Both the position numbers and the translations under genes were made by a program. Source: Candidatus Endobugula sertula (GTDB lineage Bacteria; Pseudomonadota; Gammaproteobacteria; Pseudomonadales; Cellvibrionaceae). Taken from it: a DNA stretch of 57,238 bases. The stretch spans positions 1 to 57,238 of the forward strand of contig MDLC01000015.1 in assembly GCA_001723645.1 (NCBI GenBank). Reading direction: 5' to 3'. The notes under the pieces are model-generated. The model worked only from the letters and a program-made list of their open reading frames with translations, was not told the origin of the DNA and searched no databases. Below are positions 39,441-56,937 of the stretch, one piece after another; the first letter of the stretch is position 1; every line of letters begins with the position of its first letter.

Positions 39441-40397
39441 CTATACGTTTATGCAATACCATTGAGGTGTTTTAATCGCCTGTAAATATCGCTTCGACTG
39501 CTTATCCCTTTGTAGAAACATGGGTGATTCATTCGTCACTTCAAAACCAAACTGTTTCGGTAAGCTGGTATACATTGACTTTGGCGGCAAGTCATAAATT
39601 TTTTTAATCTTTCGTCCTGTATCAAAGGTATGATAATAAATGATAGAAATTCCCAGTTCATTGCGAATAAAACGAATGGCTGCCGCTAATGATAATTCAG
39701 CCCAAAGCGTTTTATAAGGTTTTAGAATGACCTCTGCATATTCTTTAATATCTCCATATTCACAATGAATGCCATTAATCACATCGCCGGGTTTTGCCGT
39801 GTTTTCCTTGGAGAGATGTTTGTTTACGTGCTCCAGATCTCTATTGACGTCGCGTAACCAATCATTTTGCACCTCCTCAATTAATGCTTCCCCAGTAGAT
39901 AAATCTGCATCGATTCTTACCCATGACAAGGTTTTACGATAGCCCCTTCTAATAGGGTGACCTCTAAACTCAAATGGACCGTAGTTATCTGAAGGCTTTA
40001 ATAAGCGGTGATACTCCTGATTGTGCTTATTATCAAAATTAATTTGCAACACCAAATTCTGCTGATTTCTCGAAGTCTGGTCGTAGTCTCTGTCACCCTC
40101 CCCCCAGCGATCCAATGTTAGAGTAAAGGCCAGCGTGCCTTCATTCCAGTAAAGTGACACATCATCCTTGGTCAACATACCGTTACCACAACGTTTAGTA
40201 ATATTTTTCACTATAGGCTTGGTGGAAAAGCGTTGTAAAGGCGGCTTGTTTAACTCGCGTACTTGTAAGCTTTGCCTTTTGTTGTTTTCCATATACCAAT
40301 TAATCATATCTAAACAATAGCGGTCTTTAAGATAATAAAAGACTCTTCTTTCGTCACCTAAGCAATCGAGTATTTCGTCTAATTCTTTCTGTTTCAT
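39441..40397 (-). CDS. Unknown-function protein, paralog (about 70 % identity) of the gene fused to the rtcB-prfH operon
   Basis: 318 aa. Long colinear identity with the 41581-42474 ORF (e.g. [47 protein letters not shown]). Confidence 0.5.
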   Translation of the reverse strand: MKQKELDEILDCLGDERRVFYYLKDRYCLDMINWYMENNKRQSLQVRELNKPPLQRFSTKPIVKNITKRCGNGMLTKDDVSLYWNEGTLAFTLTLDRWGEGDRDYDQTSRNQQNLVLQINFDNKHNQEYHRLLKPSDNYGPFEFRGHPIRRGYRKTLSWVRIDADLSTGEALIEEVQNDWLRDVNRDLEHVNKHLSKENTAKPGDVINGIHCEYGDIKEYAEVILKPYKTLWAELSLAAAIRFIRNELGISIIYYHTFDTGRKIKKIYDLPPKSMYTSLPKQFGFEVTNESPMFLQRDKQSKRYLQAIKTPQWYCINV

Positions 40398-40677
40398 AAT
40401 AGTACTTCTGATAGGAACATCTGATTAACCGATAAATATTTACTGAAGTATTTGTAAATGGGTCAATCTAGATAGTATTACATTCAATGTTTCACATTTT
40501 CTTATCGCTACTCAAGCGATAAGTCATTTTAGACAATTCTCACCTTTTAAACTGATAACAAATAGCGTTTAGTCAGTACTCAATTGGCTAAAGAGCACTT
40601 CATAAATACCGCCTGCGCATTTTTAGCCAAATTGTTATAGCGCACTTTCCGATATCCAAATGGTGACGTTCCATTAA

Positions 40678-41022
40678 ATGACAAAATTTACAAATGGTCG
40701 TCTCATCAGCGACTATCTCGCGCTGAGGCTTTGGGATAAAAAGGTTCAATGGTTTTACAAAGTGCTGACCAAGATAGAATCTCGTTCATTGGCTCCAGAA
40801 ACATCTCTTTGCGAGTCTTCTTACGACATTTTTCAAATTCTTGGTAAAATTGGCGGGCATAAAAAACACCGTAATTTAATGCGAATGATTTCAGAGCAAC
40901 AAAAAGCTATTGCTGAAATAAAAGCGGCGATGATTGCCGATGAGGATTTCGCGGAGAAATTCGCGGCTGAATTATTGGATGAACAAACCTATAAAAAAGT
41001 CATGTCTATCTTTGTACCGTGA
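40678..41022 (+). CDS. Hypothetical protein (114 aa)
   Basis: ORF. Confidence 0.3.
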   Translation: MTKFTNGRLISDYLALRLWDKKVQWFYKVLTKIESRSLAPETSLCESSYDIFQILGKIGGHKKHRNLMRMISEQQKAIAEIKAAMIADEDFAEKFAAELLDEQTYKKVMSIFVP

Positions 41023-41255
41023 GAGGGCTTTTTGCTAACCCCCTTCATAGTGAACCAGAAGAATTAAAGGATCGGAGTTTGCCTGAAAGTCCTTTGGTGG
41101 AGGAGGATGATCCTGCCTTGGCACATTTGACCTATGAGAAAAAGGTCGAGGTGATTAAATCGTTATGGAAGATGATGTCATTGATGGTTGATATGGCGTG
41201 GGGCCTGGATAGTACACAACAATCTTTAACCGAAACCTTCCGTGGAACTGGGTAA
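41019..41255 (+). CDS. Hypothetical acidic protein (78 aa), overlapping the upstream ORF stop
   Basis: ORF with 4-nt overlap. Confidence 0.3.
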   Translation: MRGLFANPLHSEPEELKDRSLPESPLVEEDDPALAHLTYEKKVEVIKSLWKMMSLMVDMAWGLDSTQQSLTETFRGTG

Positions 41256-41306
41256 GATTCTGGAAGTGTGGTACGACTAAAAGATAGCAAAAGGAGGGTA
41301 AAGAAT

Positions 41307-41516
41307 ATGGCAGAAGTCACAAAAGCATTAATTTATTGCCGTGTATCCAGTAAGAAGCAAAAGCAAGGGGACGGCTTGGAGTCAGGAACACCGCCGCCAG
41401 ACCTTACAAAAAATGAAAGCTTGTTATTGAGGAAAAAGCGGCGAATTCGGTCAAACCGCAGCGAGGTCGTGACGATACTTATATGTTCATGGCACCATAA
41501 GTTGGCCACCTTTTGA
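41307..41516 (+). pseudogene. Serine recombinase (resolvase/invertase) N-terminal fragment
   Basis: Strong SD (AAGGAGGG) then MAEVTKALIYCRVSSKKQ, the resolvase catalytic-Ser motif. The ORF diverges and stops after about 70 codons. Confidence 0.45.
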
Positions 41517-41580
41517 CACCATAGATTGGCCGTTTTGTATAATATTTGTTCATTTGGTGCGTTTGTCTCCTGATCATACT

Positions 41581-42474
41581 CTAAATTGATAGGCGATACC
41601 ATTGGGTATTTTTAATAGCCTTTAGATATCTCCTAGCTTTTTTGTGTTGTTCTAAAAACCTAGGACTTTGACTGGTTACTTCAAATCCAAATTGCTTTGG
41701 TAACTTTGTGTACATAGATTTGGGCAGCAATCCGTAGATTTTCTTAATTTTTCGCCCTGTGTCAAAAGTATGATAATAGATGGTCGAAATACCCAGCTTG
41801 TTGCGGATAAATTGAATAGCCGCTAGTAGTGAGAGTTCCGCCCATAATCTCTTATAAGGCTCTAATATGACTTCAGCATAGTGTTTAAATTCATTATACT
41901 CACAGTCAATACCATGGATAATATCGCCGGGTTTTACTGTGTTTTTCCCAGCATAGCACCTTGTAACACGCTGCATATCCCAGGTAACTCTACGGATCCA
42001 ATCATTTTGTACCTCTTCAATTAATGCTTCTCCTGTCGTAGGATCAAAATCTATTCTTACCCAAGATAATGTTTTGCGGTTATTTTGCCTAATAGGATGC
42101 CCTCTATATTCAAATGGGCCATAGCTATCATAAGGTTTTAGTAAACTATGGTAGTGTTGGTTATGTTCATTGCCAAAATTGATTTGTAAAACCAGATTTT
42201 GCTGATTTCTAGGTGTTTGATCATAACCTCTTTCGCTGTCACCCCACCGATCAAGTGTTAATGTAAAAGTTAATACATCATTGGGCCAGTAAGATTTAAG
42301 ATTATCTATTGGTAAATAACCATTGCCGCATCGTTTGATAATGTTTTTAACAATCGGTTTTGCGGCAAATAACTCTAAATAATAGCGATCCTTAAAATAA
42401 TGAAAGCCCCTTCTTTCATTACCTAAGCAATACAGTACATCCTCTAAATATTTACTCGTTAAAATCTCTACCAT
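41581..42474 (-). CDS. Unknown-function protein, translationally coupled to prfH (third gene of rtcB-prfH operon)
   Basis: 297 aa. Its start overlaps the prfH stop by 23 nt. Paralog of 39441-40397. Confidence 0.5.
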
Positions 42475-43135
42475 AAAAAGTACGTATAGGTTTACCCCTT
42501 TGCACTTCGTAGTGCTGTGACCATCGTGAACGTTCGAGTGATTTATTTTCTAAATCGTTTTGATTTGCCAGCAATAGTTGCAAACGCTCTAATGCGATTT
42601 GCTTATTTCTATGCTGGGAACGGTCTGATTCAACACGCACTTTTAAACCAGTTGTGCGATGAGTGATACGAACCGCACTATTGGTCTTATTGACATGTTG
42701 ACCACCTGGCCCTTTTGACCGCATAGTCTCCATATCGACTTCCTTCACTAATTCGTTGAACGTCTTCATACTATTACTAGGCATTGATAATGTCGCAATA
42801 CCCACGAACCAGTTGATGCGTTTATGCTTAGGTCGATAAGGGCTTTCACCTTGCCATTTAATAGTTCCTTGCCATTTATGAGCAAACCCATCAACCCCTT
42901 TGCCTTCTAAGCGGATCAATATCGACAAAAATGCATCAGGCTCAATCAATGTCTGATTTCGCAATAACTTATCAAATGCTAAGCTCTCAACGATTTCAGC
43001 AGACAGATTTTCTCTGTATGCTTCATCCAATAGAACTCGACTGAGCTGAGCAATAACCCAGCCGCATTCTTTAGGGCCTTGACCAGCCGTCAGTTGTAGC
43101 CATACAACTGACGATTTTTTATGCTTTGTTTCCAT
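42452..43135 (-). CDS. prfH: Peptide chain release factor H (RF2-like, lacks codon-recognition domain)
   Basis: GGQ motif ([18 protein letters not shown]). 227 aa. Immediately downstream of rtcB with a 3-nt gap. Confidence 0.8.
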
Positions 43136-43137
43136 AT

Positions 43138-44373
43138 TTATGTTCTCCGTGTTTTATAGGTGAGTAATGGTTTAAAGGTTGCAACGATATCAACCATACC
43201 GGCTTCCGCTAAGTCGCTCACCACCTGACTAATATTTTTGTAGGCTTGTGGGGCCTCTTCATAAAGTAGATCTCTTTGCTTACAAATAACACGGCTACCT
43301 AGTGAAGTTTTCTCTAAGTCTTTTACCTTAAAACGCTTTTCTAAGCGGCCTCGAGCATCACTGCGTTTCCATTTTCGGCCTGCACCATGTGCTAGAGAAA
43401 AACCTCCAAGAGCCAATGCACTTAGCTCATTAACTCTAGGTTTAACAAGATAACTTAAACTACCTCGAGATCCAGGTATCATTACTAAGCCCTTATTCGT
43501 TGGGCTTGCACCTTTACGGTGTATCCAATAACGTCTTTCTGAATCGATGTCTGACTTTGCGGCTGATTTTGCAGAAAGCCCCATTAGCTCAGTCTCAACA
43601 CTTGATAAAGCTTCAACCATATTGTGGGTGACATCGAACAAATAGCGTTGCTTTGTCTTTAACTGCTGACAAAAACGTTCTGCAATAAGTTCTCGATTTG
43701 CTTCAGCCCAACGGATAGCGTAATTGTGACGTTTTTGATACTGTTCATACTGATATTCATCTTGTATGGTTTCTAATGATTTTGAACCTAGGTTATCAAC
43801 ATGATCGCGAAGTATTTTTTGCCCTAAACCTCTAGAGCCGCTATGTACGAGTAAAAACACATGCTTTTTATCAATACCTAATCCATCAAATACATCACTA
43901 TCAATAATCTCATGAATCTGTTGCAATTCAGCAAAGTGATTATCGCCACCTATTGTTCCTAACTTGTGATGCTCTGTTAATGAAAAATCACCTTCAATTA
44001 TTAGACTGCGATCGCCCAACCATTCTTCCCTATTGCCATTCCATAGTTCATCAAGCCCAACAAGTTGTTTTTCCCATTTGTCTAATTTGACCTTTCTGGT
44101 CGGAATATCTAATTGCCATAAACCCATGCCACAACCAATATCACTACCCACCATATGGGGGTAGATACAGTTTTCCGTTACAAAAGCGGCGCCAATGGGT
44201 TGCCCTTTTCCTGGGTGTAGATCTGGCATACCAATACCGATACGCATACCCGGTAATTCCATTGTTTTTTTCAGCTGCGTAATGGCAGCGTCTTCTAACC
44301 AATTTTTGTCAGAGCTAATAATGCTCGTTCGACGATCCTCAGCTGTTTCGATATTTTTAAATAAAGTACTCAT
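43138..44373 (-). CDS. rtcB: RtcB-family RNA 3'-phosphate/cyclase-product ligase (RtcB2-type, paired with PrfH)
   Basis: 411 aa with RtcB motifs (metal-binding His, GSRG, HGAGR). Confidence 0.9.
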
Positions 44374-44506
44374 ACAATTTACTTGTTCTATTTTTTCCTA
44401 TATGTCATCTTTCGGCGCAAGTTCGCCCCTCCTGAATCATACATTCAAGTTAAAAAATGACAGGCAATAAGTCTTAACAGTTAATAGCGGTGCAAGGATG
44501 CGCCGC

Positions 44507-44611
44507 CACTGGTCGACAGACCAGTGCGAACCCCTTAAAAACAAGGAGCTTCACATAGCTTCGCCAGTTTTTAAGGGGTGACAGTTAAATAGGTTAGGAT
44601 GACCTATTTAA
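44507..44611. promoter_or_regulatory. Cluster of three perfect hairpins/palindromes in the leader upstream of rtcB-prfH
   Basis: CACTGGTC-GACA-GACCAGTG (44507-44526). CCCCTTAAAAAC...GTTTTTAAGGGG (44531-44578) enclosing a nested AAGCT/AGCTT hairpin. TTAAATAGG-N9-CCTATTTAA (44585-44611). Confidence 0.4.
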
Positions 44612-44725
44612 CTATATAATTAGTAACTGCAATAAATTTTAAATATGCAAAGCTAAACTAAAGCTTCAATAAAGAGCCAGAGATTAAAAATGTTTGTCTG
44701 AATGGATATAGCAGTAAGAAAAAAT

Positions 44726-44938
44726 TTAGCTATAAGAAGCTTGGCGCCCGCCTTCCGGTACCTTTGTTCGCATTTTATGGACTTGTGAATAAGCATATCC
44801 CTTAAATTTCGCCCAGCAGCCTTTATGCAAGAATAATTGTCTTTTCTCTCTTACCATTTCGCCAACCGCTGTACTGTATAAAACACAGTTTCGAGGTACA
44901 AATAAAGAATCGATAATATATTGTGTTTTACTACCCAT
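44726..44938 (-). CDS. Hypothetical protein (70 aa)
   Basis: ORF. Confidence 0.25.
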   Translation of the reverse strand: MGSKTQYIIDSLFVPRNCVLYSTAVGEMVREKRQLFLHKGCWAKFKGYAYSQVHKMRTKVPEGGRQASYS

Positions 44939-44978
44939 TGTCTTTCATCCTGTTGAGTACTATTCCTCTAAAGTCTTT

Positions 44979-46241
44979 CTATTGAGGAGCTATCTTATAC
45001 TGTGCCATATACCGCTTAATACTACCCAAACGTAACCGACGAATTTTCTCTGCTAATTTAAGGCCTTCATAGCCTTCACTTAGTAATGGCTTGATATTGG
45101 TATCTATAGCAACCTGGTTGTATTCGATTAACAATTGAGATTGAGGGTAATCTCTTTGCTCTAATCCTAAACGACCCCTAGCATCCGCTTCACAGGCTTG
45201 CGCAAAGTAACGTACACGTTCTGGTCGCCTGAACCCATCTAGTGCTTCCAATAGCTTTAATACCGATTTGGGACGCATTTCTAATAACTTATGACAACGT
45301 AAATGATGCTCTGACACTAGTTTTGCCAAGGTGCGAAAGTCTTTCGGTACTTTATAACACTCACATACTTTCTCAACTAAAGGTACACCTTTAATTTCAT
45401 GGCGAATATGACGAGGCCACTCTTCTTCAGGGGTAAGACCTTTACCCAAATCATGCATTAGTGCAGCCCAGGTCACGATTAGATCATCAAAACGCTCTCT
45501 GGCAATGTCCACGACCATCATCACATGATCACCCGTATCCACTTCTGGGTGATGCTGTGGGGGTTGCGGAACACCAAATAAACAGTCTAATTCTGGCATT
45601 AAAACCTCCAATGCACCACAGGCACGGAGCACTCGGAAAAACTCACTGGGCCGAGGCTCGGTTAATGCTCGAGACATTTCCTTCCAAACACGTTCCGGTG
45701 TTAATTCAGCAAGCTCGCCATTGTTAACCAAGTGCTTCATTAATTCTAATGTATTGGGATGCACTTGAAAATCTAACGTGGCATAACGTGCAGCAAAACG
45801 GGCTACTCTTAATACTCTCAATGGGTCATCAGAGAATGATTCTGAAACATGTCGTAAGACTTTATTATTTAAATCGGCTCTACCGTTAAACGGATCAACA
45901 TATTTACCTTCTAATGTCAGCGCAATGGCATTAATCGTAAGGTCTCTCCGAGATAGATCTTCTTCAAGTGTAACCTCGGGGCTAAAATCACAAACAAAGC
46001 CAGTGTGCCCCTTACCTGATTTTCTTTCAGTACGAGCGAGAGCATATTCATCCTTAGTTTCTGGGTGTAAAAAACAGGGAAAGTCGTTACCTATTTGTTG
46101 ATAGCCTTGCTCTATAAGCATTTCTGGAGTCGCACCGATGACTACCCAGTCATGATCTGCAACTGGGCGACCTAATAGCTTATCGCGTACCGCTCCACCG
46201 ACTAAATAAGCCTGAACACCAGTATTCTGTATATTTTCCAT
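44979..46241 (-). CDS. cca: Multifunctional CCA-adding enzyme (tRNA nucleotidyltransferase with HD phosphohydrolase domain)
   Basis: GGAVRD nucleotidyltransferase motif. The HD domain (HDLGKG) is typical of enteric-type Cca. Confidence 0.9.
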   Translation of the reverse strand: MENIQNTGVQAYLVGGAVRDKLLGRPVADHDWVVIGATPEMLIEQGYQQIGNDFPCFLHPETKDEYALARTERKSGKGHTGFVCDFSPEVTLEEDLSRRDLTINAIALTLEGKYVDPFNGRADLNNKVLRHVSESFSDDPLRVLRVARFAARYATLDFQVHPNTLELMKHLVNNGELAELTPERVWKEMSRALTEPRPSEFFRVLRACGALEVLMPELDCLFGVPQPPQHHPEVDTGDHVMMVVDIARERFDDLIVTWAALMHDLGKGLTPEEEWPRHIRHEIKGVPLVEKVCECYKVPKDFRTLAKLVSEHHLRCHKLLEMRPKSVLKLLEALDGFRRPERVRYFAQACEADARGRLGLEQRDYPQSQLLIEYNQVAIDTNIKPLLSEGYEGLKLAEKIRRLRLGSIKRYMAQYKIAPQ

Positions 46242-46987
46242 TATATTGTTACGACTAAGTTCTCATTAAAGTTTGGGTTATAGCTATCTGGATAACCTCT
46301 TGGATTACAAATAATACGGCAGTTACCTATGGAGTAATCATAACTTTGGTGCAAATGACCGTGAATCCAAAGATTTGGACTGTACTCCAAAATAAAATCA
46401 TCTAAATCAGATACATAGGCAGCGCTCGTCATATCGCTTGCCTTTTTCTCTGAAAGAGACATTCTACTAGGGCCGTGGTGACTTATAACAACATTTTTAT
46501 ACCCTTTATAAGTGGTTAGTTCACGTTCAAGCCAATGAAGTGAATGTTTATGGATAATAGCCGTATCTATCGACCTTAATTTTGAGTACTTGGGAGAAAC
46601 TCGAATCTTCTTGTAGTCATTCATTATCTGTTGACAGTGAAAACCTGCAATCCGAGGATCGCCAAAAAGCTCAAAATCTGTCCATAATGTACAGCCAAAG
46701 AAATTAATATTACCTAAAGTAACCAACTCTTTTTCTAAAATATGAATGTTTGTGTCTTTAGCCATCGCTTTCATTTCATGAATATATTTCGGATACGCTT
46801 TACCGTAAAATTCATGGTTGCCTAGTACATATAAGACGGGTTTATCAGGTATATTTTTTAATGCCCACTCTATTCCTTTTCCTTTTACATGGATATCACC
46901 AGCAAGAATGACAATGTCACACTCCGGCAAGGTTAGTTCCAAATTAGCAAACTCTATATGTAGATCACTTAATATTAATAACTTCAC
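46241..46987 (-). CDS. Calcineurin-like metallophosphoesterase
   Basis: DLH...GDIH...GNHEF metallophosphoesterase motifs. Its stop abuts the cca start. Confidence 0.75.
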   Translation of the reverse strand: MKLLILSDLHIEFANLELTLPECDIVILAGDIHVKGKGIEWALKNIPDKPVLYVLGNHEFYGKAYPKYIHEMKAMAKDTNIHILEKELVTLGNINFFGCTLWTDFELFGDPRIAGFHCQQIMNDYKKIRVSPKYSKLRSIDTAIIHKHSLHWLERELTTYKGYKNVVISHHGPSRMSLSEKKASDMTSAAYVSDLDDFILEYSPNLWIHGHLHQSYDYSIGNCRIICNPRGYPDSYNPNFNENLVVTI

Positions 46988-47052
46988 GTTATACTTCTGA
47001 TAGTTTTTTCATATGTAAAGGGTAAAACCGCCAGCAAGCTGACGGTTATCGG

Positions 47053-49536: not shown

Positions 49537-49578
49537 TACCTTGCGCCAAAAAATAAATCCATATGTGAATACACCAGC

Positions 49579-49875: not shown

Positions 49876-49908
49876 AATCCCTCCTGTGAGCTAGTGAGAA
49901 TATTTAGG

Positions 49909-49980
49909 GGTGACCGATGGGACTCGAACCCATATATACTTGAGCCACATTCAAGCGCATTACCGATCTGCCACGGCCAC
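49909..49980 (-). tRNA. tRNA-His (GTG), 3' CCA not encoded
   Basis: Anticodon stem CTTGA/TCAAG with loop ATGTGGC. T-arm ATGGG-TTCGAGT-CCCAT. Ends ...GGTCACC-C-CT. Confidence 0.7.
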
Positions 49981-50011
49981 ACCTAAATATTCTGGGTAAT
50001 AAGAAATAATT

Positions 50012-50086
50012 TGGTCCGCCCGGTAGGATTTGAACCCACACCTGTCGGCTTAAAAGGCCGATGCGCTACCATTACGCCACGAACGG
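50012..50086 (-). tRNA. tRNA-Lys (TTT)
   Basis: Anticodon stem TCGGC/GCCGA, loop CTTTTAA, T-loop TTCAAAT, CCA encoded. Confidence 0.8.
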
Positions 50087-50091
50087 AAAAT

Positions 50092-50170
50092 TGGCACCTG
50101 ACACAGGACTCGAACCTGCATCTCCCCGCTTCGTAGGCGGGTGCTCTAAATCCAATTGAGCTAATCAGGC
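50092..50170 (-). tRNA. tRNA-Arg (ACG)
   Basis: Anticodon stem CCCGC/GCGGG, loop CTACGAA, T-loop TTCGAGT, CCA encoded. Acceptor stem has two G-U pairs. Confidence 0.7.
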
Positions 50171-50176
50171 AAAATT

Positions 50177-50250
50177 TGGAGCCCAATACAGGACTCGAAC
50201 CTGTCTCTACTGCTTACAAGGCAGTTGCACAGCCGCTATGCCAATCGGGC
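50177..50250 (-). tRNA. tRNA-Thr (TGT)
   Basis: Anticodon stem ACTGC/GCAGT, loop CTTGTAA, T-arm ACAGG-TTCGAGT-CCTGT, CCA encoded. Confidence 0.8.
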
Positions 50251-50290
50251 AAGTTAAGAAATTTTGTGAAATAAAAGACTGGAATCCTTT

Positions 50291-51487
50291 CTAGCCTTTT
50301 ACGTTGACGATTTGACGAAGCGTATGAACAACGTCAACAAGATCAGTTTGGTTATCCATAACATCATCAATTGGCTTATACGCCATGGGAATCTCATCGA
50401 TTACACCTTTGTCTTTACGGCATTCAATCCCCTCTGTTGCAGATACAAGATCACTTACAGAATAGGTTTTTGCAGCCGCAGTTCGACTTAGGCGACGTCC
50501 AGCGCCGTGAGAGCAAGAACAGAACGATTCTGATTCACCTTTACCACGAACAATAAAACTTTTATCGCCCATAGACCCAGGAATAATACCCAAATCATCT
50601 TTTCTTGCGCGGATAGCGCCTTTACGTGTAACCCATACGTTTTTACCAAAATGGTTTTCCTTTTCCACATAGTTATGATGACAATTGATGGCTTCTTGAG
50701 TGACCGCAAACGCTGGAAGATGTTTACGTAGCTCCATCATCACTGCATTCATCATATGTGTACGATTCAATGCAGCATAATCTTGCCCCCAAGATACTGC
50801 TTCGATGTAATCATCGTAATATTCTGATCCTTCAGATAGATAAGCCAAATCTTTATCGGGCAAATGGATCATCCATTTTTCCATTTCACGTTTCGCGATC
50901 TCGATAAAATGCATTCCAATTTTATTACCGATACCACGGCTTCCTGAATGCAGCATAATCCATACGTCTTGATTTTCATCCAAACACAACTCGATAAAGT
51001 GATTCCCTGAACCTAGCGTACCTAACTGCTTTGCAAAGGCATCATACTTAATACGTTTACTTATTTGAGGATGCTTCTCGAAGATAGTACTTAAACGCAT
51101 TGAAATATCATGGCCACCTGCAATTTTAGGGTCACGATGTTTTCCGCCTGCCCCCAAAGGCACAACAGATTCAATACGACTGCGAATAGCTTTCAAATTA
51201 TCAGGCAGATCTTTTGCCTTTAGCGATAGACGCACGGCATTCATACCACAACCAATATCCACGCCTACTGCAGCAGGGATAATCGCTTTATCGGTCGCGA
51301 TTACTGAACCCACAGTCGCTCCTTTACCCAAATGAACATCTGGCATTGCTGCTACATGTTTATAGACAAAGGGTAAATTCGCTACTCGGCTTAATTGTGC
51401 CTGTGTGTTGTAATCAATATCATCTGTCCAGATTTTTACAGGCACACGCTGATCTTTATGCGTTGCCAATACTTTTTTAATGGTCAT
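50291..51487 (-). CDS. rtcB: RtcB-family RNA ligase (second copy), embedded in the tRNA array
   Basis: 398 aa with RtcB motifs (HLGKGATVGS, HSGSRGIGN, HGAGRR). Flanked 5' by 13 tRNA genes and 3' by 4 tRNA genes on the same strand. Confidence 0.9.
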   Translation of the reverse strand: MTIKKVLATHKDQRVPVKIWTDDIDYNTQAQLSRVANLPFVYKHVAAMPDVHLGKGATVGSVIATDKAIIPAAVGVDIGCGMNAVRLSLKAKDLPDNLKAIRSRIESVVPLGAGGKHRDPKIAGGHDISMRLSTIFEKHPQISKRIKYDAFAKQLGTLGSGNHFIELCLDENQDVWIMLHSGSRGIGNKIGMHFIEIAKREMEKWMIHLPDKDLAYLSEGSEYYDDYIEAVSWGQDYAALNRTHMMNAVMMELRKHLPAFAVTQEAINCHHNYVEKENHFGKNVWVTRKGAIRARKDDLGIIPGSMGDKSFIVRGKGESESFCSCSHGAGRRLSRTAAAKTYSVSDLVSATEGIECRKDKGVIDEIPMAYKPIDDVMDNQTDLVDVVHTLRQIVNVKG

Positions 51488-51517
51488 AATTGCCTCCTTT
51501 AGTTATTTTATAATGAC

Positions 51518-51658
51518 TGGTTGGAGGTATAGGAATAACCTAAGCGCGTCCTGCGCTTAGCCTTTCAGATGCAAAGCAGTTCAAAATGCTCCCGGCATTT
51601 TGTCGAACCCATCTCGCCGGGGCAAAAACCCGGTGCTCAGCCACTAAGCCAACCTCCA
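51518..51658 (-). tRNA. tRNA-like gene (anticodon loop TTTTTGC, anticodon UUU?) with a 74-nt T-loop in place of the usual 7 nt
   Basis: Perfect acceptor TGGAGGT/ACCTCCA, D-arm and anticodon arm CCGGG/CCCGG intact. T-stem ATGGG/CCTAT encloses TTCGACAAAATGCCGGGAGCATTTTGA...GGTTATT (+ strand 51534-51607). CCA encoded. Confidence 0.55.
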
Positions 51659-51668
51659 GTTAAGTAAT

Positions 51669-51818
51669 TGGAGCGATGTATGGGAATCGAACCCATTTCC
51701 TCTGCTTGGACTGCTTTGCAGGAGCAAAAGCAGGACATCATGTAGTGGTGGTTGCGAAGCAATTGTGTATAGGGATATACACAACAACGCAGGTACCTCA
51801 CCATTCGGTTAACATCGC
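51669..51818 (-). tRNA. tRNA gene with an 83-nt anticodon loop between stem halves CCTGC/GCAGA; identity unresolved (Gly-TCC, Ala or Thr possible; discriminator U)
   Basis: Acceptor GCGATGT/ACATCGC perfect. T-arm ATGGG-TTCGATT-CCCAT. Insert at + 51706-51788 contains an 8-bp hairpin TGTGTATA/TATACACA and the motif TTTTGCTCCTGCAAA. Confidence 0.5.
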
Positions 51819-51824
51819 ATAAAT

Positions 51825-51902
51825 TGGTCTGGGTGGTAGGGTTTGAACCTACGACCTTTGGGTTCCAAACCCAACACGCTAACCAAACTGCGCTACACCC
51901 AG
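51825..51902 (-). tRNA. tRNA-Pro (TGG)
   Basis: Acceptor CTGGGTG/CACCCAG. Anticodon stem TTGGG/CCCAA, loop TTTGGAA. T-arm GTAGG-TTCAAAC-CCTAC. CCA encoded. Confidence 0.8.
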
Positions 51903-51910
51903 AATAAATT

Positions 51911-52052
51911 TGGCGGTTCATACCACTTCCCATAAATAGAGAGGGAACCGGTGATCTCTCGGCTTATTCACATGAATGTAATGTATGCCGATTTTGCAGG
52001 AGCAAAAATCGGTGACAACCGAGCGCATTAAACCTGACTATGCTAATGAACC
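51911..52052 (-). tRNA. tRNA-Asp (GTC) with a 49-nt insertion immediately 3' of the anticodon loop and an expanded 24-nt T-loop
   Basis: Acceptor GGTTCAT/ATGAACC perfect. D stem GCAT/ATGC. Anticodon stem CTCGG...CCGAG encloses loop TTGTCAC followed by insert CGATTTTTGCTCCTGCAAAATCG... (+ 51963-52011). T-stem ATCAC/GTGGT. Discriminator G as expected for Asp. Confidence 0.55.
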
Positions 52053-52057
52053 TTAAT

Positions 52058-52133
52058 TGGTGGAGACCGTGGGAATCGAACCCACCACACAGTGCTTGCA
52101 AAGCATCGTCGCCCCCTTGATACATGGGCCCCC
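52058..52133 (-). tRNA. tRNA-Ala (TGC) with G3-U70 pair; irregular D-arm
   Basis: Anticodon loop TTTGCAA. T-arm GTGGG-TTCGATT-CCCAC. Acceptor GGGGGCC/GGTCTCC gives G3·U70. CCA encoded. Confidence 0.6.
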
Positions 52134-52138
52134 AATTT

Positions 52139-52293
52139 TGGAGTGCGAGGCTGGGTGAAAGAAGTGTTGTTAGCAAAGCACTGCTTTGTACTTCTTGAAC
52201 GCCCAAAACTTATAATTTTTGGCCGGCCCGCTTGCGGCAAACCAGCGTATACGGAGGTTGCAGCTCCGCGCATCGTCTCTCTGCCACTCGCAC
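52139..52293 (-). tRNA. tRNA-Cys (GCA) with an 87-nt T-loop
   Basis: Acceptor GTGCGAG/CTCGCAC perfect. Anticodon stem CGGAG/CTCCG, loop CTGCAAC. T-stem GCTGG/CCAGC perfect, enclosing + strand 52155-52241. Discriminator U as expected for Cys. CCA encoded. Confidence 0.55.
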
Positions 52294-52310
52294 AAAATAG
52301 TTATTCAGAT

Positions 52311-52384
52311 TGGCAACAGCGTCAGGATTCGAACCTGGAATACCGGAGTCAAAGTCCAGTGTGTTACCGTTACACCACGCTGCT
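52311..52384 (-). tRNA. tRNA-Gln (TTG)
   Basis: Anticodon stem CTGGA/TCCGG, loop CTTTGAC. D stem GTGT/ACAC. T-loop TTCGAAT. Discriminator G. CCA encoded. Confidence 0.75.
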
Positions 52385-52392
52385 ATATTTTT

Positions 52393-52481
52393 TGGTCGTG
52401 AGGAGCGGGTTTGAACTCTCGCAGCACTCTTGTTACTGTGCGGATTAGCAATCCGCTGCCTTACCACTCGGCCACATTTCC
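52393..52481 (-). tRNA. tRNA-Ser (GCT)-like type II gene, probably degenerate (acceptor halves and T-stem poorly paired)
   Basis: 5' half matches Ser (TG-GCC-GAGTGGTAA-GGC, anticodon stem GCGGA/TCCGC, loop TTGCTAA). 3' acceptor CCTCACG does not pair with 5' GGAAATG. T-stem GAGAG/CCGCT is mispaired. Confidence 0.4.
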
Positions 52482-52487
52482 AATAAT

Positions 52488-52629
52488 TGGTTGCGGTGGC
52501 TGGAATAACCAAAGTACTTTCTGTACTTTGCTCTGCGAGTGCTTCGCTGCTCAAAATGCTCCAGGCATTTTGTCGAACCAACAAGTTCGGGCATATGAAA
52601 CCCGCGAGTAGCCATAGCTCAACACCGCT
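52488..52629 (-). tRNA. tRNA (anticodon CAT) with a 74-nt T-loop, same architecture as 51518-51658
   Basis: Acceptor (A)GCGGTG/CACCGCA. Anticodon stem CGGGT/GCCCG, loop TTCATAT. T-stem GTTGG/CCAGC encloses TTCGACAAAATGCCTGGAGCATTTTGA...GGTTATT (+ 52504-52577). D-arm weak. CCA encoded. Confidence 0.5.
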
Positions 52630-52640
52630 TCAAATAGTAG

Positions 52641-52715
52641 TAGGCCAAGGCGGATTCGAACCGCTCCTTATCCCGCTTATGAGGCGGGTGCATTCACCGA
52701 TTATGCTATTGGCCT
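52641..52715 (-). tRNA. tRNA-Met/Ile2 (CAT), CCA not encoded
   Basis: Acceptor AGGCCAA/TTGGCCT perfect. D stem GCAT/ATGC. Anticodon stem CCCGC/GCGGG, loop CTCATAA. T-loop TTCGAAT. Confidence 0.75.
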
Positions 52716-52725
52716 AATTTAAAAT

Positions 52726-52809
52726 TGGTGTAGGCAGATGGAGTTGAACCACCAAAGCTTTCGCGACCGGGTTACAACCGGCTAGAGTCACCACGTCTCT
52801 TCTGTGTAC
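52726..52809 (-). tRNA. tRNA-Tyr (GTA), type II; acceptor stem has two internal mismatches
   Basis: Anticodon stem GCCGG/CCGGT, loop TTGTAAC. Long variable arm. T-arm GGTGG-TTCAACT-CCATC. Acceptor GTACACA vs TGCCTAC. Confidence 0.55.
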
Positions 52810-52818
52810 CTGCATAAT

Positions 52819-52895
52819 TGGCTCCGGCAGTTGGGATCGAACCAACGAACTCCTGATTAACAGTCAGGCGCATTACCACTCTGCTTCACACCGGA
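52819..52895 (-). tRNA. tRNA-Asn (GTT)
   Basis: Anticodon stem CCTGA/TCAGG, loop CTGTTAA. T-arm GTTGG-TTCGATC-CCAAC. Acceptor with two G-U pairs. CCA encoded. Confidence 0.75.
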
Positions 52896-52902
52896 ATAAA
52901 AT

Positions 52903-52979
52903 TGGTACAGTGAGCTGGACTCGAACCAGCACTCTCCTGATCTTCAATCAAGCGCTCTACCAATTGGAGCTATCACTGC
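52903..52979 (-). tRNA. tRNA-Phe (GAA)
   Basis: D-arm GCTC-CAATTGGTA-GAGC. Anticodon stem CTTGA/TCAGG, loop TTGAAGA. T-arm GCTGG-TTCGAGT-CCAGC. CCA encoded. Confidence 0.8.
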
Positions 52980-52984
52980 CGTTT

Positions 52985-53015
52985 TATTTGGCACGCGGTG
53001 AAAGAAAAGTATCAA
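52985..53015 (-). promoter_or_regulatory. Candidate sigma70 promoter for the tRNA array (TTGATA-N19-CAAATA, about 5 nt upstream of tRNA-Phe +1)
   Basis: Minus strand reads TTGATACTTTTCTTTCACCGCGTGCCAAATAAAACG then the tRNA-Phe 5' end. Confidence 0.35.
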
Positions 53016-53173
53016 ACCTCATCGAGGAGTGGAACGACAGCAATAAAATTGATCCTGAACGGCTAGAAGACCAGCTCACACCAGAGCGTTATAGGGCGCT
53101 ATTTGATACCCTCGTAGATTGGAATGACTATCTTGACAACCATGCACCGGATATCAAGGAGTTGTTGCTATGA
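52988..53173 (+). CDS. Small hypothetical protein upstream of mobC (possible TTG start just past tRNA-Phe)
   Basis: The listed ORF 52910-53173 overlaps tRNA-Phe. The only plausible start downstream of the tRNA is the TTG at 52988. Confidence 0.25.
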   Translation: MARGERKVSNLIEEWNDSNKIDPERLEDQLTPERYRALFDTLVDWNDYLDNHAPDIKELLL

Positions 53174-53598
53174 ACAATTCTGCGAACCTCAAACAAGCGT
53201 TTGAAACCTCTAGCGCTCAAAATACCATCAAACCTAAAAAGCAGTATGCACGAACATTTTCTATGCGTCTTACGGATGGTGAACGTGATTTCTTAGACCA
53301 GCATAGCGGCTCTTTGTCATGGTCTGGCTATATCCGCAAGCGTGTCTTTGGTGAAAAAGCCGAAAAACGTCGCCCTGTAAAACGAGCTGTGCCAGATACG
53401 GCGCTACTAGCTCAAGTTCTCGCAGAGCTAGGCGCTTCCCGTTTATCTGCCAATATCAACCAACTGGCAAAACACGCCAATATGGGAACGCTGGACGTTT
53501 CGCCTGAAACTGAGCGCGAGATTGAAAGCGCCTGCCGTGAAATCCATACCCTGCGTATGCTGTTGATTGCTGCCTTGGGTGTTCAGCCAGAGGATTAG
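53170..53598 (+). CDS. mobC: MobC-like relaxosome accessory protein
   Basis: 142 aa immediately upstream of, and overlapping, the relaxase gene. Resembles the MobC family. Confidence 0.55.
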   Translation: MNNSANLKQAFETSSAQNTIKPKKQYARTFSMRLTDGERDFLDQHSGSLSWSGYIRKRVFGEKAEKRRPVKRAVPDTALLAQVLAELGASRLSANINQLAKHANMGTLDVSPETEREIESACREIHTLRMLLIAALGVQPED

Positions 53599-53600
53599 AG

Positions 53601-54734
53601 ATGATATTGCACGGCAATCAACGCGGCGGCGCTAAAGATATGGCGCTTCATCTTATGAAAGATGAAAACGAACATATTGAGGTGTACGAGATCAGAGGCT
53701 TTGCTTCTGAAAACCTCATAGGGGCTTTTAACGAAGCCTATGCCATTAGCCGCGCCACACGTTGTAAGCAATTCCTATACTCTCTAAGCTTAAACCCGCC
53801 ACCGGATGAGCAGGTATCTACTGAAAGCTTTAAAAAAGCCATTAATCAGGCTGAACAACGGCTAGGGCTGGATAATCAGCCCCGCGTTATTGTTTTCCAT
53901 GAAAAGCAGGGGCGTAGGCATTGCCATGTTGTCTGGTCACGAATTGATAGCTCTGAATTAAAGGCCATACGGCTTCCTTTTACCAAGTTGAAATTACGGG
54001 AGTTATCCCGCGAATTATTCCTAGAGCATGGCTGGGCTATGCCCGAAGGTTTGCGGGATTCCCACAACCGTGACCCGCGTAATTTTACCTTGGCAGAATG
54101 GCAGCAAGCCAAACGCACAGGCAAGAACCCCAAGCAGGTTAAGGCCGTATTCCAAGAATGCTGGAATATTAGCGATACACAAAGCGCTTTTGCCAATGCC
54201 CTAAAAGAGCATGGTTATATCTTGGCGCGTGGTGATCGGCGCGGCTTTGTTGCGGTGGATTTTAAAGGTGAAGCTTTCGCCGTGTCTAAATGGGTTGGCA
54301 TTAAAGCAAAAGACGTTAAAGCCAAACTCAACGAAGCGGATAAGTTGCTTCCATTTGCAGACGCTAAAGCACACATGGCAAATGCTATGGCGGCAACATT
54401 GCAAAAGGCTCAAGAGCAGCAAAATACCGCTATTCGTGAGCGCCAAAATCAGCTTGAGGCAAGACTTGAAGCCATGGCCATGCAACATAAGCAAGAACGC
54501 CAAAATCTGGAACAAACACAAGATATACGCCGTATTGAAGAAACCAAAACCCGCCAAGCCAGATACAGCAAAGGCTTACGAGGCCTATGGCAACGCCTGG
54601 ATAAGTTCAGGGAACAGGGGCAAAAGCATATCACTCAAGACATACAACAATACCGCGAAATCCAACAACATAAGCGGGATACGTTCAGCATGACAGACCC
54701 ACAAAAACATAGGGGTAGAGGGCTTGAGCGTTAA
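53601..54734 (+). CDS. mobA: Mobilization relaxase (MobA/VirD2-type relaxase/mobilisation nuclease domain)
   Basis: N-terminal relaxase domain (ILHGNQRGGAKDMALHLMKDENEHIEVYE...; H.H.VV motif III). C-terminal coiled-coil. Confidence 0.8.
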   Translation: MILHGNQRGGAKDMALHLMKDENEHIEVYEIRGFASENLIGAFNEAYAISRATRCKQFLYSLSLNPPPDEQVSTESFKKAINQAEQRLGLDNQPRVIVFHEKQGRRHCHVVWSRIDSSELKAIRLPFTKLKLRELSRELFLEHGWAMPEGLRDSHNRDPRNFTLAEWQQAKRTGKNPKQVKAVFQECWNISDTQSAFANALKEHGYILARGDRRGFVAVDFKGEAFAVSKWVGIKAKDVKAKLNEADKLLPFADAKAHMANAMAATLQKAQEQQNTAIRERQNQLEARLEAMAMQHKQERQNLEQTQDIRRIEETKTRQARYSKGLRGLWQRLDKFREQGQKHITQDIQQYREIQQHKRDTFSMTDPQKHRGRGLER

Positions 54735-54822
54735 TTAATTGGTTAAATTTGACTCAAACAGCAAAAAAGTTGTATGCTTAAACATATATGTGTTTATACG
54801 CTTATTTATAGAGGTAACTATC

Positions 54823-55059
54823 ATGACACGTTGGAGTCTTGTTGTTAATAACGAAACCGATCAAAGCTTACGTGCTTTTCTGGGTCAGAAAGGTGCGAAA
54901 AAAGGTGATTTATCCAAATTCGTAGAAGAAGCCGTACTGGATAAATTACTGGCTGAAACAGCAGAAATGATTAAAGAGCGTAATGCTGCCGATGATCAAA
55001 TGAATATTATGAGTACAGTAAATGAAGCATTAGAGGCTGTACGTGCGCATAGTTCTTGA
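54823..55059 (+). CDS. Ribbon-helix-helix antitoxin (start taken at internal ATG 54823 with GAGGT SD; six-frame ORF begins 54739)
   Basis: Small protein whose stop overlaps the PIN toxin start. MTRWSLVVNNETDQSLRAFL is RHH-like. Confidence 0.5.
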   Translation: MTRWSLVVNNETDQSLRAFLGQKGAKKGDLSKFVEEAVLDKLLAETAEMIKERNAADDQMNIMSTVNEALEAVRAHSS

Positions 55060-55459
55060 TACAGGCATTTTAGTTAGCGCATTAATCACCAAAGATACGC
55101 CGCCTGATTGGTTGTACCAATCATGGTGTAAACAAGCCTTTACGCTTGTCACCTCTGAAGAGCAACTGGAAGAAATAAAGCGTGTACTGTCTTATAAAAA
55201 GCTCGAACGTTTTATCAATCAGTCCGAAGCACAAATTCTGCTAGAAGCTCTCCACCGAAAAGCAGATATTGCAACAGACCTACCTTTTGTTGAACTATCA
55301 CCTGACCCTGATGATAACCGTATTATTGCCACGGCGCTGGCTGGGCAAGCGGATTATCTGGTATCAGGCGATAAGGCGGATTTATTGAGCCTTGGCATGG
55401 CTCATGATATTCCCATTCTTACTGCTCGGCAGATGGCAGAACGCTTGAAACTGGGTTAA
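55043..55459 (+). CDS. PIN-domain toxin (VapC-like)
   Basis: MRIVLDTGILVSALI N-terminus with conserved acidic residues. Confidence 0.7.
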   Translation: MRIVLDTGILVSALITKDTPPDWLYQSWCKQAFTLVTSEEQLEEIKRVLSYKKLERFINQSEAQILLEALHRKADIATDLPFVELSPDPDDNRIIATALAGQADYLVSGDKADLLSLGMAHDIPILTARQMAERLKLG

Positions 55460-55475
55460 ATAACAAAGCCATTTA

Positions 55476-56027
55476 TCAATTGAAAAAGTCTCGAATGTCC
55501 ATAATTGCACCTTTCCCGTTAAGGTGCTGGCGCATTTGATTTAGCTTTTCATAAATTGTGACAGTATATATTCCGTTAAAGCTGCCATATATCTTATGGT
55601 CTTCCCCCGTTTCACAATATTTAGGGTTATCCAATGTGTGAAAAGTTCTACAGTGAAATGGCCTTACCTCATATATCGTACATTCGCCTTCATCACCAAG
55701 AAAAGGACAAGGGCTAGTATGTCCGGTAGAAGCAATTAATTGTCTGGGCTTTCTCTTTCGACGGGTCTCTTCCTCTATAAGTTTTGCTTCTAATTCAGTG
55801 ATCGTGACATCAATTTTGCAGCAGTGAGAACATCCTTTCGAGCAAACAGAGAAGGTTTTAACAAAGTCACCATAATCTTCTAAATATTTGTAAATATCTT
55901 TTAGCTTCAAAATAGCTCTTTTATTTTTAGATTGAAGTGTGCTCAGTAACTTCTTGCACTTAATAGCTAATTCATTAGGGATAGCAGGTAATACCGTTTC
56001 TTCACTTTTATCTTTAAACTTTATCAT
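55476..56027 (-). CDS. YkgJ/UPF0153-family Cys-rich (CxxCxxCC) putative zinc/iron-binding protein
   Basis: CSKGCSHCCKID motif plus additional Cys pairs. Confidence 0.55.
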   Translation of the reverse strand: MIKFKDKSEETVLPAIPNELAIKCKKLLSTLQSKNKRAILKLKDIYKYLEDYGDFVKTFSVCSKGCSHCCKIDVTITELEAKLIEEETRRKRKPRQLIASTGHTSPCPFLGDEGECTIYEVRPFHCRTFHTLDNPKYCETGEDHKIYGSFNGIYTVTIYEKLNQMRQHLNGKGAIMDIRDFFN

Positions 56028-56147
56028 TATACGACCTCTGATAACCTCTACGATTAAATCATGATGATATTGATGCCAAAAAAGTGGCTAGTTACACCTT
56101 AGCTGAGAGTAACAAAATAAGTGAACAAAGACGACGATAAGAGGAAC

Positions 56148-56372
56148 CTAAAATGAGGTATTAGGTACTTTTTTAATATAATCACGAACGGCGATGAGTA
56201 TAGGGCTTAGATCTTCGTCTTTGCTATGAATCATCTTCAAAACCGTATCCTCGCTATCGGCTAGATCACAAAGCATAGAGCCATACATTTTCATGTAGCT
56301 GCGGTATTTGCGTTTAAGCTGTGCTGGTGTTGTCATTGCTGGAAGTCCTTTTTTTCTGAGGGGTATATTCAT
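56148..56372 (-). CDS. Hypothetical protein (74 aa)
   Basis: ORF overlapping the recombinase 3' end. Confidence 0.25.
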   Translation of the reverse strand: MNIPLRKKGLPAMTTPAQLKRKYRSYMKMYGSMLCDLADSEDTVLKMIHSKDEDLSPILIAVRDYIKKVPNTSF

Positions 56373-56937
56373 TTAAGATGCGGCTGAGAGTGCGGGTAGA
56401 GATGCCAAATTCTTTGGCTATCTCTTTATGAGTGTATTGCTGTTGGGCTTTCATTTTGAGGAGTGCGCGGGTTTTACGCTGTGATAGTTTACGCCGCCGC
56501 CCAAGGTGTTTGCCGTTTTGTCGGGCGATTTCCAACCCTGCTTTGGTTCGCTCTGAAATAATATCGCGCTCAAGCTCTGCAAAGGCATTGCGGATGGTAT
56601 ACATGCACTTACCCATCGGGGTTGTTGTGTCGATAGCTTCCGTCAAACATTTAAACTCAAGGCCGCGTTGCTGAAATAAATCTAATACGTCTAGTGCGTT
56701 TCTAACCGAACGGAAGGCACGGTCAAATTTCCAAATCACCAGCACATCACCATACTGCATAGACGCAATAGCGCTGTCGAAGCCTGGGCGTGATTTAGCG
56801 ATAGCGGACACGCCCAAGTCTTCGAAGATATTATTCTGCTCACACCCTGCTAATATCAGGGCTTTGCGTTGTAGGTCTAAATTCTGTTCACTGGTGCTAA
56901 CCCGCGCATAACCAATCAAGGCCATAAATCCTCCCAT
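56314..56937 (-). CDS. Serine recombinase (resolvase/invertase family)
   Basis: N-terminal catalytic motif IGYARVSTSEQ and a C-terminal HTH. Confidence 0.85.
   Translation of the reverse strand: MGGFMALIGYARVSTSEQNLDLQRKALILAGCEQNNIFEDLGVSAIAKSRPGFDSAIASMQYGDVLVIWKFDRAFRSVRNALDVLDLFQQRGLEFKCLTEAIDTTTPMGKCMYTIRNAFAELERDIISERTKAGLEIARQNGKHLGRRRKLSQRKTRALLKMKAQQQYTHKEIAKEFGISTRTLSRILNEYTPQKKRTSSNDNTSTA

Follow-up and report, generated by a model that had tools for sequence, protein, structure and literature searches.

The window analysed here is the whole 57,238-bp contig MDLC01000015.1 of the bryozoan symbiont ‘Candidatus Endobugula sertula’ (locus tags AB835_05810 to AB835_05930), in which a left flank of chromosomal genes (ygfA, zapA, yaaA and a HAD gene) gives way to a block of RNA-repair, tRNA and mobility genes. 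An earlier note, made from the DNA letters, had described 39441–56937 as a single self-contained mobilizable island of 17.5 kb. Nearly all of the gene content that it listed was borne out by profile searches: the two rtcB genes, prfH, cca and the metallophosphoesterase, SPFH and HNH genes were all matched in Pfam or NCBIfam, and the mobC-relaxase pair, VapBC-like toxin-antitoxin pair, Cys-rich protein and serine recombinase in Pfam (Table 1), whilst a cREC-like gene, an RlaP fragment and a gene pair without a name had been missed. The accessory cargo of RNA/translation-repair and tRNA genes stands, and the single mobilizable unit does not, since its modules occur apart. The region is probably a mosaic of two horizontally mobile modules which happen to adjoin in ‘Candidatus Endobugula sertula’, a repair and tRNA cassette (Module 1) and a mobilization unit (Module 2).

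The cassette was found in two other genomes, with the same genes in the same order at other loci. These comparison loci are L209, from a 4.38-Mb contig, and L208, in sample SRR26541444, which represents the closest relative. The shared order runs from rtcB1 (rtcA in L208) through tRNAs, a cREC-like gene, HNH, tRNA-Met, SPFH, cca, RlaP, rtcB2 and prfH to a GNAT-fold gene, and across the two loci the cassette proteins are 37–91% identical to those of the window at the amino acid level. For L209 the identities are 91% for rtcB1, 60% for HNH, 77% for SPFH, 81% for cca, 68% for both rtcB2 and prfH and 63% for the GNAT-fold protein. Similarity at the DNA level covers 39456–52416 of the window. Peculiar to this copy are an added phosphoesterase gene, absent from both L208 and L209, a further paralogue of the GNAT-fold gene, and an RlaP gene most of which has been lost. 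No mobilization unit lies within 10 kb of the L208 and L209 cassettes on the visible side, and in the L208 organism the cassette is on another contig, beside a PF04245 (NA37) gene and not at the yrfG locus.

It is at the yrfG locus that the block lies here, in the order yrfG, IS630-like remnant, cassette. The same locus was without the block in all three relatives in which its presence was checked, including ‘Ca. Endobugula sp.’ and the organism carrying L208. Their gene order is ygfA, zapA, a 70-aa gene, inositol phosphatase, yrfG and hslR, then hslO and pckA in two of the three, such that yrfG is followed by hslR in the relatives and by the IS630-like remnant and the block in the window. The recurrence of the cassette in the same order at other loci in two genomes, together with the empty yrfG locus in three relatives, identifies it as accessory, and on this point, accessory and not core, the earlier note was right. 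With regard to gene content at this locus (37700–39400), the inositol-phosphatase gene that lies between zapA and yrfG in the relatives and hslR (with hslO and pckA in two of them) are missing, and 37.7–38.3 kb contains no open reading frame (ORF) comparable to the relatives’ inositol-phosphatase gene.

The mobilization unit was likewise found apart from the cassette. Its 4.16 kb are 90–93% nucleotide-identical to positions 9389–13691 of L292 (GCA_020628895.1), where the copy has identical gene order, unrelated flanks and no cassette; the ends of the unit are defined solely by where similarity to L292 stops. The occurrence of a closely similar unit without the cassette marks the mobility genes as a separate, discrete unit, which this genome and another have come to share recently. 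Although in principle able to mobilize adjacent DNA, it has no history of co-evolution with the cassette.

Table 1. Features of the block and of its left edge, in window coordinates.
Feature	Position	Strand	Evidence and remarks
6S RNA	36971–37145		Left flank
IS630-like remnant	38994..39370		Synteny break, just outside cassette; weak HTH_Tnp_IS630 match, E 0.004, below cutoff
Module 1, repair and tRNA cassette	39441–52979		rtcB1, tRNA array, cREC-like, HNH, SPFH, phosphoesterase, cca, RlaP fragment, rtcB2-prfH, GNAT-fold protein
GNAT-fold RtcB-associated protein, 318 aa	39441–40397	-	Orthologue of terminal cassette gene in L208 and L209; 63–70% identity
Two ORFs and possible serine-recombinase N-terminal fragment	40678..41516	+	Between GNAT-fold paralogues
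GNAT-fold paralogue, 297 aa	41581–42474	-	Directly downstream of prfH
prfH (release factor H)	42452–43135	-	TIGR03072 equivalog, 209 bits, cutoff 166.65
rtcB2 (PrfH-linked RNA ligase)	43138–44373	-	NF007153 503 bits; TIGR03073 438 bits
RlaP nucleotidyltransferase fragment (pseudogene)	44738–44917	-	60 aa, 96.7% identical to residues 118–177 of 300-aa L209 RlaP
cca, multifunctional CCA addition/repair enzyme with HD domain	44979–46241	-	NF008137 609 bits, cutoff 451; Pfam PolyA_pol and HD
Calcineurin-like metallophosphoesterase	46241–46987	-	Pfam Metallophos, E 2.8e-14
SPFH/Band-7 protein	47053–48207	-	Pfam Band_7, E 5e-31
tRNA-Met(CAU)	48542–48618	-	ARAGORN, Rfam
HNH endonuclease	48985–49536	-	Pfam HNH_5, E 1.4e-16
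cREC-like (cyclic-phosphate-processing receiver), 98 aa	49579–49875	-	PF20274 E 7e-4, below cutoff
Thr(UGU), Arg(ACG), Lys(UUU), His(GUG), four canonical tRNAs	49907–50250	-	ARAGORN, Rfam
rtcB1 (general RtcB RNA ligase)	50291–51487	-	Pfam RtcB, E 1.7e-129
X5, tRNA-Lys(UUU)	51518–51658	-	67-nt RtT-family insert (51536–51602) after T-loop TTCGA; R1 44.3 bits, E 1e-10
X4, tRNA-Gly(UCC)	51669–51818	-	76-nt RtT-family antisense insert (51711–51786), U33/U34; R1 26.7 bits, E 5e-7, plus strand
tRNA-Pro(UGG)	51825–51902	-	ARAGORN, Rfam
X3, tRNA-like	51911–52052	-	56-nt anticodon-loop insert, aberrant T arm; 7-bp acceptor stem, GCCA end
tRNA-Ala(UGC)	52058–52132	-	ARAGORN only
X2, tRNA-Cys(GCA)-like	52139–52293	-	~88-nt T-loop insert; model R1 no match
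tRNA-Gln(UUG) and marginal Ser(GCU)-like	52311–52481	-	ARAGORN, Rfam
X1, CAU-anticodon tRNA gene	52488–52630	-	67-nt RtT-family insert (52506–52572) in T loop; model R1 39.7 bits, E 3e-9
Phe(GAA), Asn(GUU), Tyr(GUA), Met(CAU), four canonical tRNAs	52640–52979	-	ARAGORN, Rfam
Module 2, mobilization unit	52989–57149		Small ORF, mobC, relaxase, RHH/PIN, CxxCxxCC protein, 74-aa ORF, resolvase
mobC	53170–53598	+	Pfam MobC
Relaxase	53601–54734	+	Pfam Relaxase, E 1.5e-19
RHH antitoxin	54739–55059	+	Pfam RHH_6
PIN toxin	55043–55459	+	Pfam PIN_3
CxxCxxCC protein	55476–56027	-	PF03692
Serine recombinase, resolvase type, 203 aa	56314–56925	-	Pfam Resolvase; start 56925 by exact look-up

Within the cassette, rtcB2 lies immediately upstream of prfH in the same orientation, 2 nt apart, and both proteins exceed their NCBIfam equivalog cutoffs, which places them with the PrfH-linked RtcB ligases and the PrfH-type release factors respectively. 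Between cca and rtcB2 a 70-aa ORF is 96.7% identical over 60 aa to the RlaP of L209, indicating that most of the gene was deleted recently. The small protein encoded beside HNH is cREC-like, and PF20274 was matched by three of five of its homologues (best E 8e-5); adjacency of HNH and the cREC-like gene is conserved in L003, L067, L208 and L209. The 297- and 318-aa proteins, which are 62% identical to each other, have a GNAT fold. No Pfam, NCBIfam or PADLOC family was found for the 318-aa protein, neither protein matched a Pfam or NCBIfam profile at E≤0.01, so that profiles do not place them in the GNAT superfamily, and the family was unmatched in viral contigs.

Parts of the cassette recur widely in gammaproteobacteria. 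Amongst 80 rtcB1-related loci the sub-modules SPFH-rtcB, rtcB-GNAT-fold and tRNA array-cREC-HNH-rtcB were seen repeatedly, with the SPFH gene directly upstream of rtcB in approximately 14 of the 80. Of the 80 genome loci and 80 viral contigs with close rtcB1 relatives, 8 and 7, respectively, had at least three tRNAs nearby, and the three closest Cellvibrionaceae loci have 0, 3 and 16 tRNAs, a patchy distribution across the rtcB1-relative loci which, as for tRNA L-arrays, points to horizontal transfer. Locus L003, from a related Cellvibrionaceae metagenome-assembled genome, combines an array of 16 tRNA genes with rtcB, cREC and HNH in one module; its flanks (1700–7200 and 14900–18700) hold a full nicotinamide adenine dinucleotide (NAD) salvage set (NrtR, NMNAT-like, PncA, PncB and NadE) together with RdgC, a DnaG-type primase and Fic, a context that looks phage- or plasmid-like.

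The tRNA genes, put at about 18 in the earlier note, comprise 12 canonical genes, one marginal gene and five genes interrupted by inserts (X1–X5), all on the minus strand between 48.5 and 53.0 kb. The canonical genes are those called by ARAGORN, Rfam finding 11 of its own including one marginal, and they span 11 amino acids, in agreement with the definition of an L-array as at least 10 close same-strand genes of mostly different specificity. The marginal Ser(GCU)-like gene (52406–52481) is type II with a poor acceptor stem and scores 30.5 bits against a cutoff of 29. Each interrupted gene is 141–155 nt long, with its 7-bp acceptor stem, D arm and NCCA end preserved and a 56–90-nt insert in the T loop or the anticodon loop; a generic search for such a stem together with NCCA yields approximately one match per kb by chance and served as a pointer only. 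A TTTTGCTCCTGCAAA hairpin is common to X3 and X4. In its intron mode ARAGORN called X4 a tRNA-Asn with intron, which was rejected in favour of Gly(UCC) on alignment with the orthologue. The anticodon loop of X5 reads UUUUUGC versus CUUUUAA in its orthologue, with positions 37 and 38 changed, which reflects decay or else alters the surface that anticodon nucleases recognize. Directly after the tRNA-Met(CAU) at 48542–48618 lies an orphan T-arm-like stub, GGGGTTCGAATCCCC (48510–48523), which may be a tRNA remnant.

Several observations weigh against the reading of the region as two mobile modules. The sequence upstream of the tRNA array in L209 is out of view, such that a mobilization unit there is possible; cca matches a housekeeping-type equivalog; and assembled contigs from the Logan collection do not span the short IS-remnant stretch linking flank to block. 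The cassette is also partly eroded, as seen in the RlaP fragment, the five tRNA genes with inserts and the marginal one, and the system may in part be in decay in this host-restricted symbiont. Carried to its end this would make the block a fossil of past transfers in an eroding genome and no longer a working system, which we regard as rather unlikely whilst giving it real weight: the deletion in the relaxase, the IS and resolvase remnants and the absence from the locus of the inositol-phosphatase gene and hslR-hslO-pckA would all accord with it, but the remaining cassette ORFs are all full length and share 60–91% identity with their orthologues, twelve tRNAs score as canonical, and the stems of the interrupted Gly and Lys genes differ from those of L209 by compensatory and not random changes.

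A cassette that is partly eroded and otherwise intact, lying next to a separate mobilization unit, also has to be set against the island of the earlier note, in which the relaxase and serine recombinase would move the repair and tRNA cargo together. In favour of such an integrative mobilizable island, the two modules abut, only 10 bp separating tRNA-Phe from the mobilization unit, the block is accessory, and there may be mobile sequence on both sides of the cassette interior. Between the GNAT-fold paralogues, window positions 40846–41010 are 58% identical at the amino acid level to a 193-aa gene beside the L292 resolvase, in inverted orientation, which suggests that 40678–41516 is a decayed, inverted second copy of the mobilization-element neighbourhood; with remnants of a second copy at 40.6–41.5 kb, mobile-element sequence would bracket 41.6–53 kb. 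The earlier note had recognized a dead resolvase fragment here (41307–41516). Its YxRVSxxxQ-like motif is present and is the sole support for the fragment, since 41268–41516 gave no Pfam match even at E≤1 and the call thus lacks hidden Markov model support.

The mobilization unit itself carries the relaxase and accessory protein of an integrative mobilizable element, and related relaxases are plasmid-borne, including that of the mobilizable MOBP plasmid pTF4.1. The N-terminal domain of the relaxase is intact, and 47 residues are deleted in frame in the C-terminal coiled-coil region, as judged against an 80%-identical relative of 424 aa (most homologues have 424–433 aa). Were the unit circularised, on paper, its 210-bp non-coding right end would fall between divergent resolvase and mob genes, a plasmid-like layout. 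The oriT (nic site) near mobC and the att repeats to which the earlier note had looked did not materialise: no YATCCTGY (RP4-type nic) site occurs in or near the unit, a consensus that may not be that of this relaxase clade, inverted repeats were not reported upstream of mobC, the search around the block, whose right end is beyond the contig, gave no att-like direct repeats, and the unit has no terminal inverted repeats. A megablast search of 39441–57238 against PLSDB returned no plasmid match. We consider a single island improbable, because the mobilization unit is known without the cassette in L292 at about 91% nucleotide identity, in two genomes no such unit is seen within 10 kb of the cassette on the side in view, oriT consensus and att repeats were not found, and the recombinase is of the 203-aa resolvase type and not a large serine integrase. 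For the two-module mosaic, the description of Module 2 as mobilizable and any present-day mobility of the block are accordingly presumptive.

The edges of the block are unequal in what they reveal. The earlier note had flanking chromosomal synteny stopping at the edge of the block, and on the left chromosomal genes and 6S RNA do break off at the IS630-like remnant, itself drawing only the weak match given in Table 1. On the right, 56937 is approximately 300 bp from the contig end. Since the window takes in the contig from end to end, it is the end of the contig that fixes 56937, which is no observed island boundary, and the right edge of the block is beyond the contig. Contig and Logan contigs from runs SRR4020083 and SRR4020084 are 100% identical, and those of both samples end at ~39209, the next beginning at ~39297, so that the chromosomal location of the block rests on the deposited assembly. 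A block belonging to a plasmid or to some other locus, with a repeated IS630 fragment as its bridge to the yrfG flank, would account for this break and for a contig that ends just beyond a plasmid-like mob/toxin-antitoxin/resolvase unit, but such a replicon or assembly artefact is very unlikely, the deposited assembly crossing the junction, no replication gene being visible and the L292 mobilization unit sitting in a 97-kb contig among chromosomal-type genes. At the far left of the window, positions 1–6000 have a G+C content of 0.34–0.39, below the 0.40–0.46 of most of the contig.

The inserts in the interrupted tRNA genes belong, in X1, X4 and X5, to a recognizable family. At least 120 metagenome stretches carry the motif that X1 and X5 share, nearly always at tRNA genes, and a covariance model (R1) was built from 41 metagenome units only. 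R1 shows strong covariation: in its seed alignment 96% of cells are paired versus 30–44% with the partners slid, and 13 of 21 pairs show double changes. R1 matches X5, X1 and, on the opposite strand, X4, and it also matches the three 178-bp tyrT-distal repeats and the tyrT-tyrV spacer of Escherichia coli K-12 (RtT/rttR) with 28.5–39.1 bits; the three inserts thus share both sequence and structure with the E. coli rttR repeats. Searched against the Rfam RtT family (RF00391) directly, the window inserts gave no match at E≤10 and so fall short of the gathering threshold, and metagenome relatives scored 38.3 and 32.9 bits, below the cutoff of 45. Known ribozymes and other Rfam families were not significant in the long tRNA-like genes. 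A genome-wide palindromic repeat was considered and rejected, the insert motifs occurring only inside tRNA-like genes of the window.

Empty sites are available in L209, where uninterrupted tRNA-Gly(UCC) (525–598) and tRNA-Lys(UUU) (607–680) genes stand opposite X4 and X5. Comparison of filled and empty sites places insertion after TTCGA in the T loop or, on the other strand, after TTGGA in the anticodon loop, with an ambiguity of at most 1 nt and no target duplication at either X4 or X5. Insertion 3′ of a fixed short target without its duplication and hairpins near both ends, the terminal hairpins covarying, are as in IS200/IS605-type miniature elements. The element is ~70–90 nt long, and the loci on which this description draws also include L209 (525–680 and 2077–2161), L041 (several), L087–L206 and L207 (the E. 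coli tyrT region). In 121 metagenome and viral stretches no rtcB or other island genes co-occur with RtT-type units, and the recognizable neighbours of the metagenome units are housekeeping genes; none of the 12 most widespread neighbour clusters inspected was transposase-like, no search aimed at a Y1 (HUH) transposase having been made. Insertion in both orientations, the fixed TT(C/G)GA target, the covarying hairpins and copies beside housekeeping tRNAs without rtcB lead us to favour a DNA-level miniature mobile element with IS200/IS605-like behaviour that targets tRNA loops, insertions of which a redundant tRNA array would tolerate well. Judged by the filled and empty sites, the family of the E. 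coli RtT repeats acts as a small mobile element directed at tRNA loops would, which offers a concrete hypothesis for a repeat described decades ago.

It is highly improbable that the interrupted tRNA genes are instead functional, their inserts being cut from the transcript and the halves joined by the adjacent RtcB in a bacterial protein-dependent tRNA splicing; if true, this would supply a biological setting for the E. coli RtT repeats, which have long gone unexplained. In its favour, the inserts lie in the T or anticodon loop and leave the cloverleaf otherwise intact, beside rtcB1; insert-bearing genes tend to carry anticodons that the canonical set lacks (Cys and Gly here; Trp, Glu and Ser in L041); the X4 and X5 stems show three compensatory changes relative to L209; and processing reportedly releases E. 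coli RtT RNA from the tyrT transcript. Against it, the same insert family occurs in both orientations and in more than 120 metagenome stretches beside housekeeping tRNAs, none with rtcB, as would suit a selfish element acting at the DNA level; neither a known ribozyme nor a bulge-helix-bulge motif was detected; and X5 duplicates a canonical tRNA-Lys.

Returning to the cassette of the two-module mosaic, a working scheme can be proposed from the characterised families, in which each biochemical role is putative. RtcB1 would reseal RNAs, mainly tRNAs, that metal-independent ribotoxins have cut to leave 2′,3′-cyclic-phosphate and 5′-OH ends, with the cREC-like protein and the phosphoesterase processing the ends and Cca rebuilding damaged CCA tails. 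PrfH would free the peptide from ribosomes cut in the decoding centre of 16S rRNA, and RtcB2 would religate the cleaved 16S rRNA. The 12–13 intact tRNA genes, all with an encoded CCA, may supply replacement or decoy tRNAs, replacement being the role proposed for cyanobacterial L-arrays (PMC8421152) and phage arrays (PMC7824862). The SPFH, HNH and GNAT-fold proteins are conserved partners to which the scheme assigns no role, and the SPFH protein, the HNH/cREC-like pair and the GNAT-fold protein are the partners that could be tested. The cassette unites three countermeasures, usually studied apart, to nucleases directed at the translation machinery, namely the resealing of tRNAs, their resupply, and the rescue of ribosomes with religation of the rRNA, and if working in this way it would be a portable, broad-spectrum shield against ribotoxins. 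The block represents a recent horizontal input into a symbiont genome that otherwise shows erosion.

Both tRNA arrays near rtcB and the rtcB2-prfH pair are already known, and it is their combination here that is new. In E. coli the RtcB2-PrfH module protects against colicin E3 and repairs 16S rRNA (PMC9223846, PMC9304027), and the adjacent rtcB2 and prfH of the window resemble the module of E. coli ATCC 25922. According to the portion of a 2019 survey drawn on here (PMC6514570), PrfH-RtcB is sporadic, spreads by horizontal gene transfer and accretes accessory genes around the pair, as the window pair also appears to have done. Unlike that module, the pair here is inside a larger conserved cassette with a second rtcB, cca, SPFH, HNH, cREC-like, tRNA and GNAT-fold genes. 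The partners given in that portion of the survey are a TPR gene, a Pol-beta nucleotidyltransferase and two proteins with charged helical regions, the GNAT-fold protein not being among them (PMC6514570).

Horizontal spread is known for tRNA L-arrays, which lie near rtcB and, in cyanobacteria, are induced together with it under translational stress (PMC8421152). The array in the window is like them in being tight and same-strand, with many specificities, a patchy spread suggestive of horizontal transfer, RNA-processing neighbours including rtcB and some pseudogene members, and unlike them in being gammaproteobacterial, shorter (12–13 intact genes), split by protein genes and fused to two ligase systems, with RtT-family inserts in several members. 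The tRNA arrays of phages, jumbo phages among them, similarly combine tRNA supply with an RtcB-type ligase and a cRec domain protein, cRec domains having been linked to RNA ligases (PMC7824862), and the logic that may be shared is the countering of tRNA-cutting host or competitor nucleases. In contrast to phage arrays, the cassette is not accompanied by genes for phage structure or replication, is carried by the chromosome or by an element, and has the ribosome-repair pair in addition.

For the mobilization unit, the nearest comparison is with integrative mobilizable elements and pTF4.1 (MOBP), with which it shares a mobC-relaxase pair 40% identical to that of the plasmid, a toxin-antitoxin pair, a site-specific recombinase and its existence as a discrete unit in differing genomic contexts; it differs from them in having no replication gene, no identified oriT or att, a resolvase-sized recombinase and the 47-aa relaxase deletion. 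The RtT-family inserts, finally, have in common with the E. coli RtT RNA/tyrT repeats (RF00391) a hairpin architecture and units that border T-loop sequence; the E. coli units lie downstream of the tRNA and end in a copy of its 3′ end, whilst those in the window lie inside the T or anticodon loop in either orientation.

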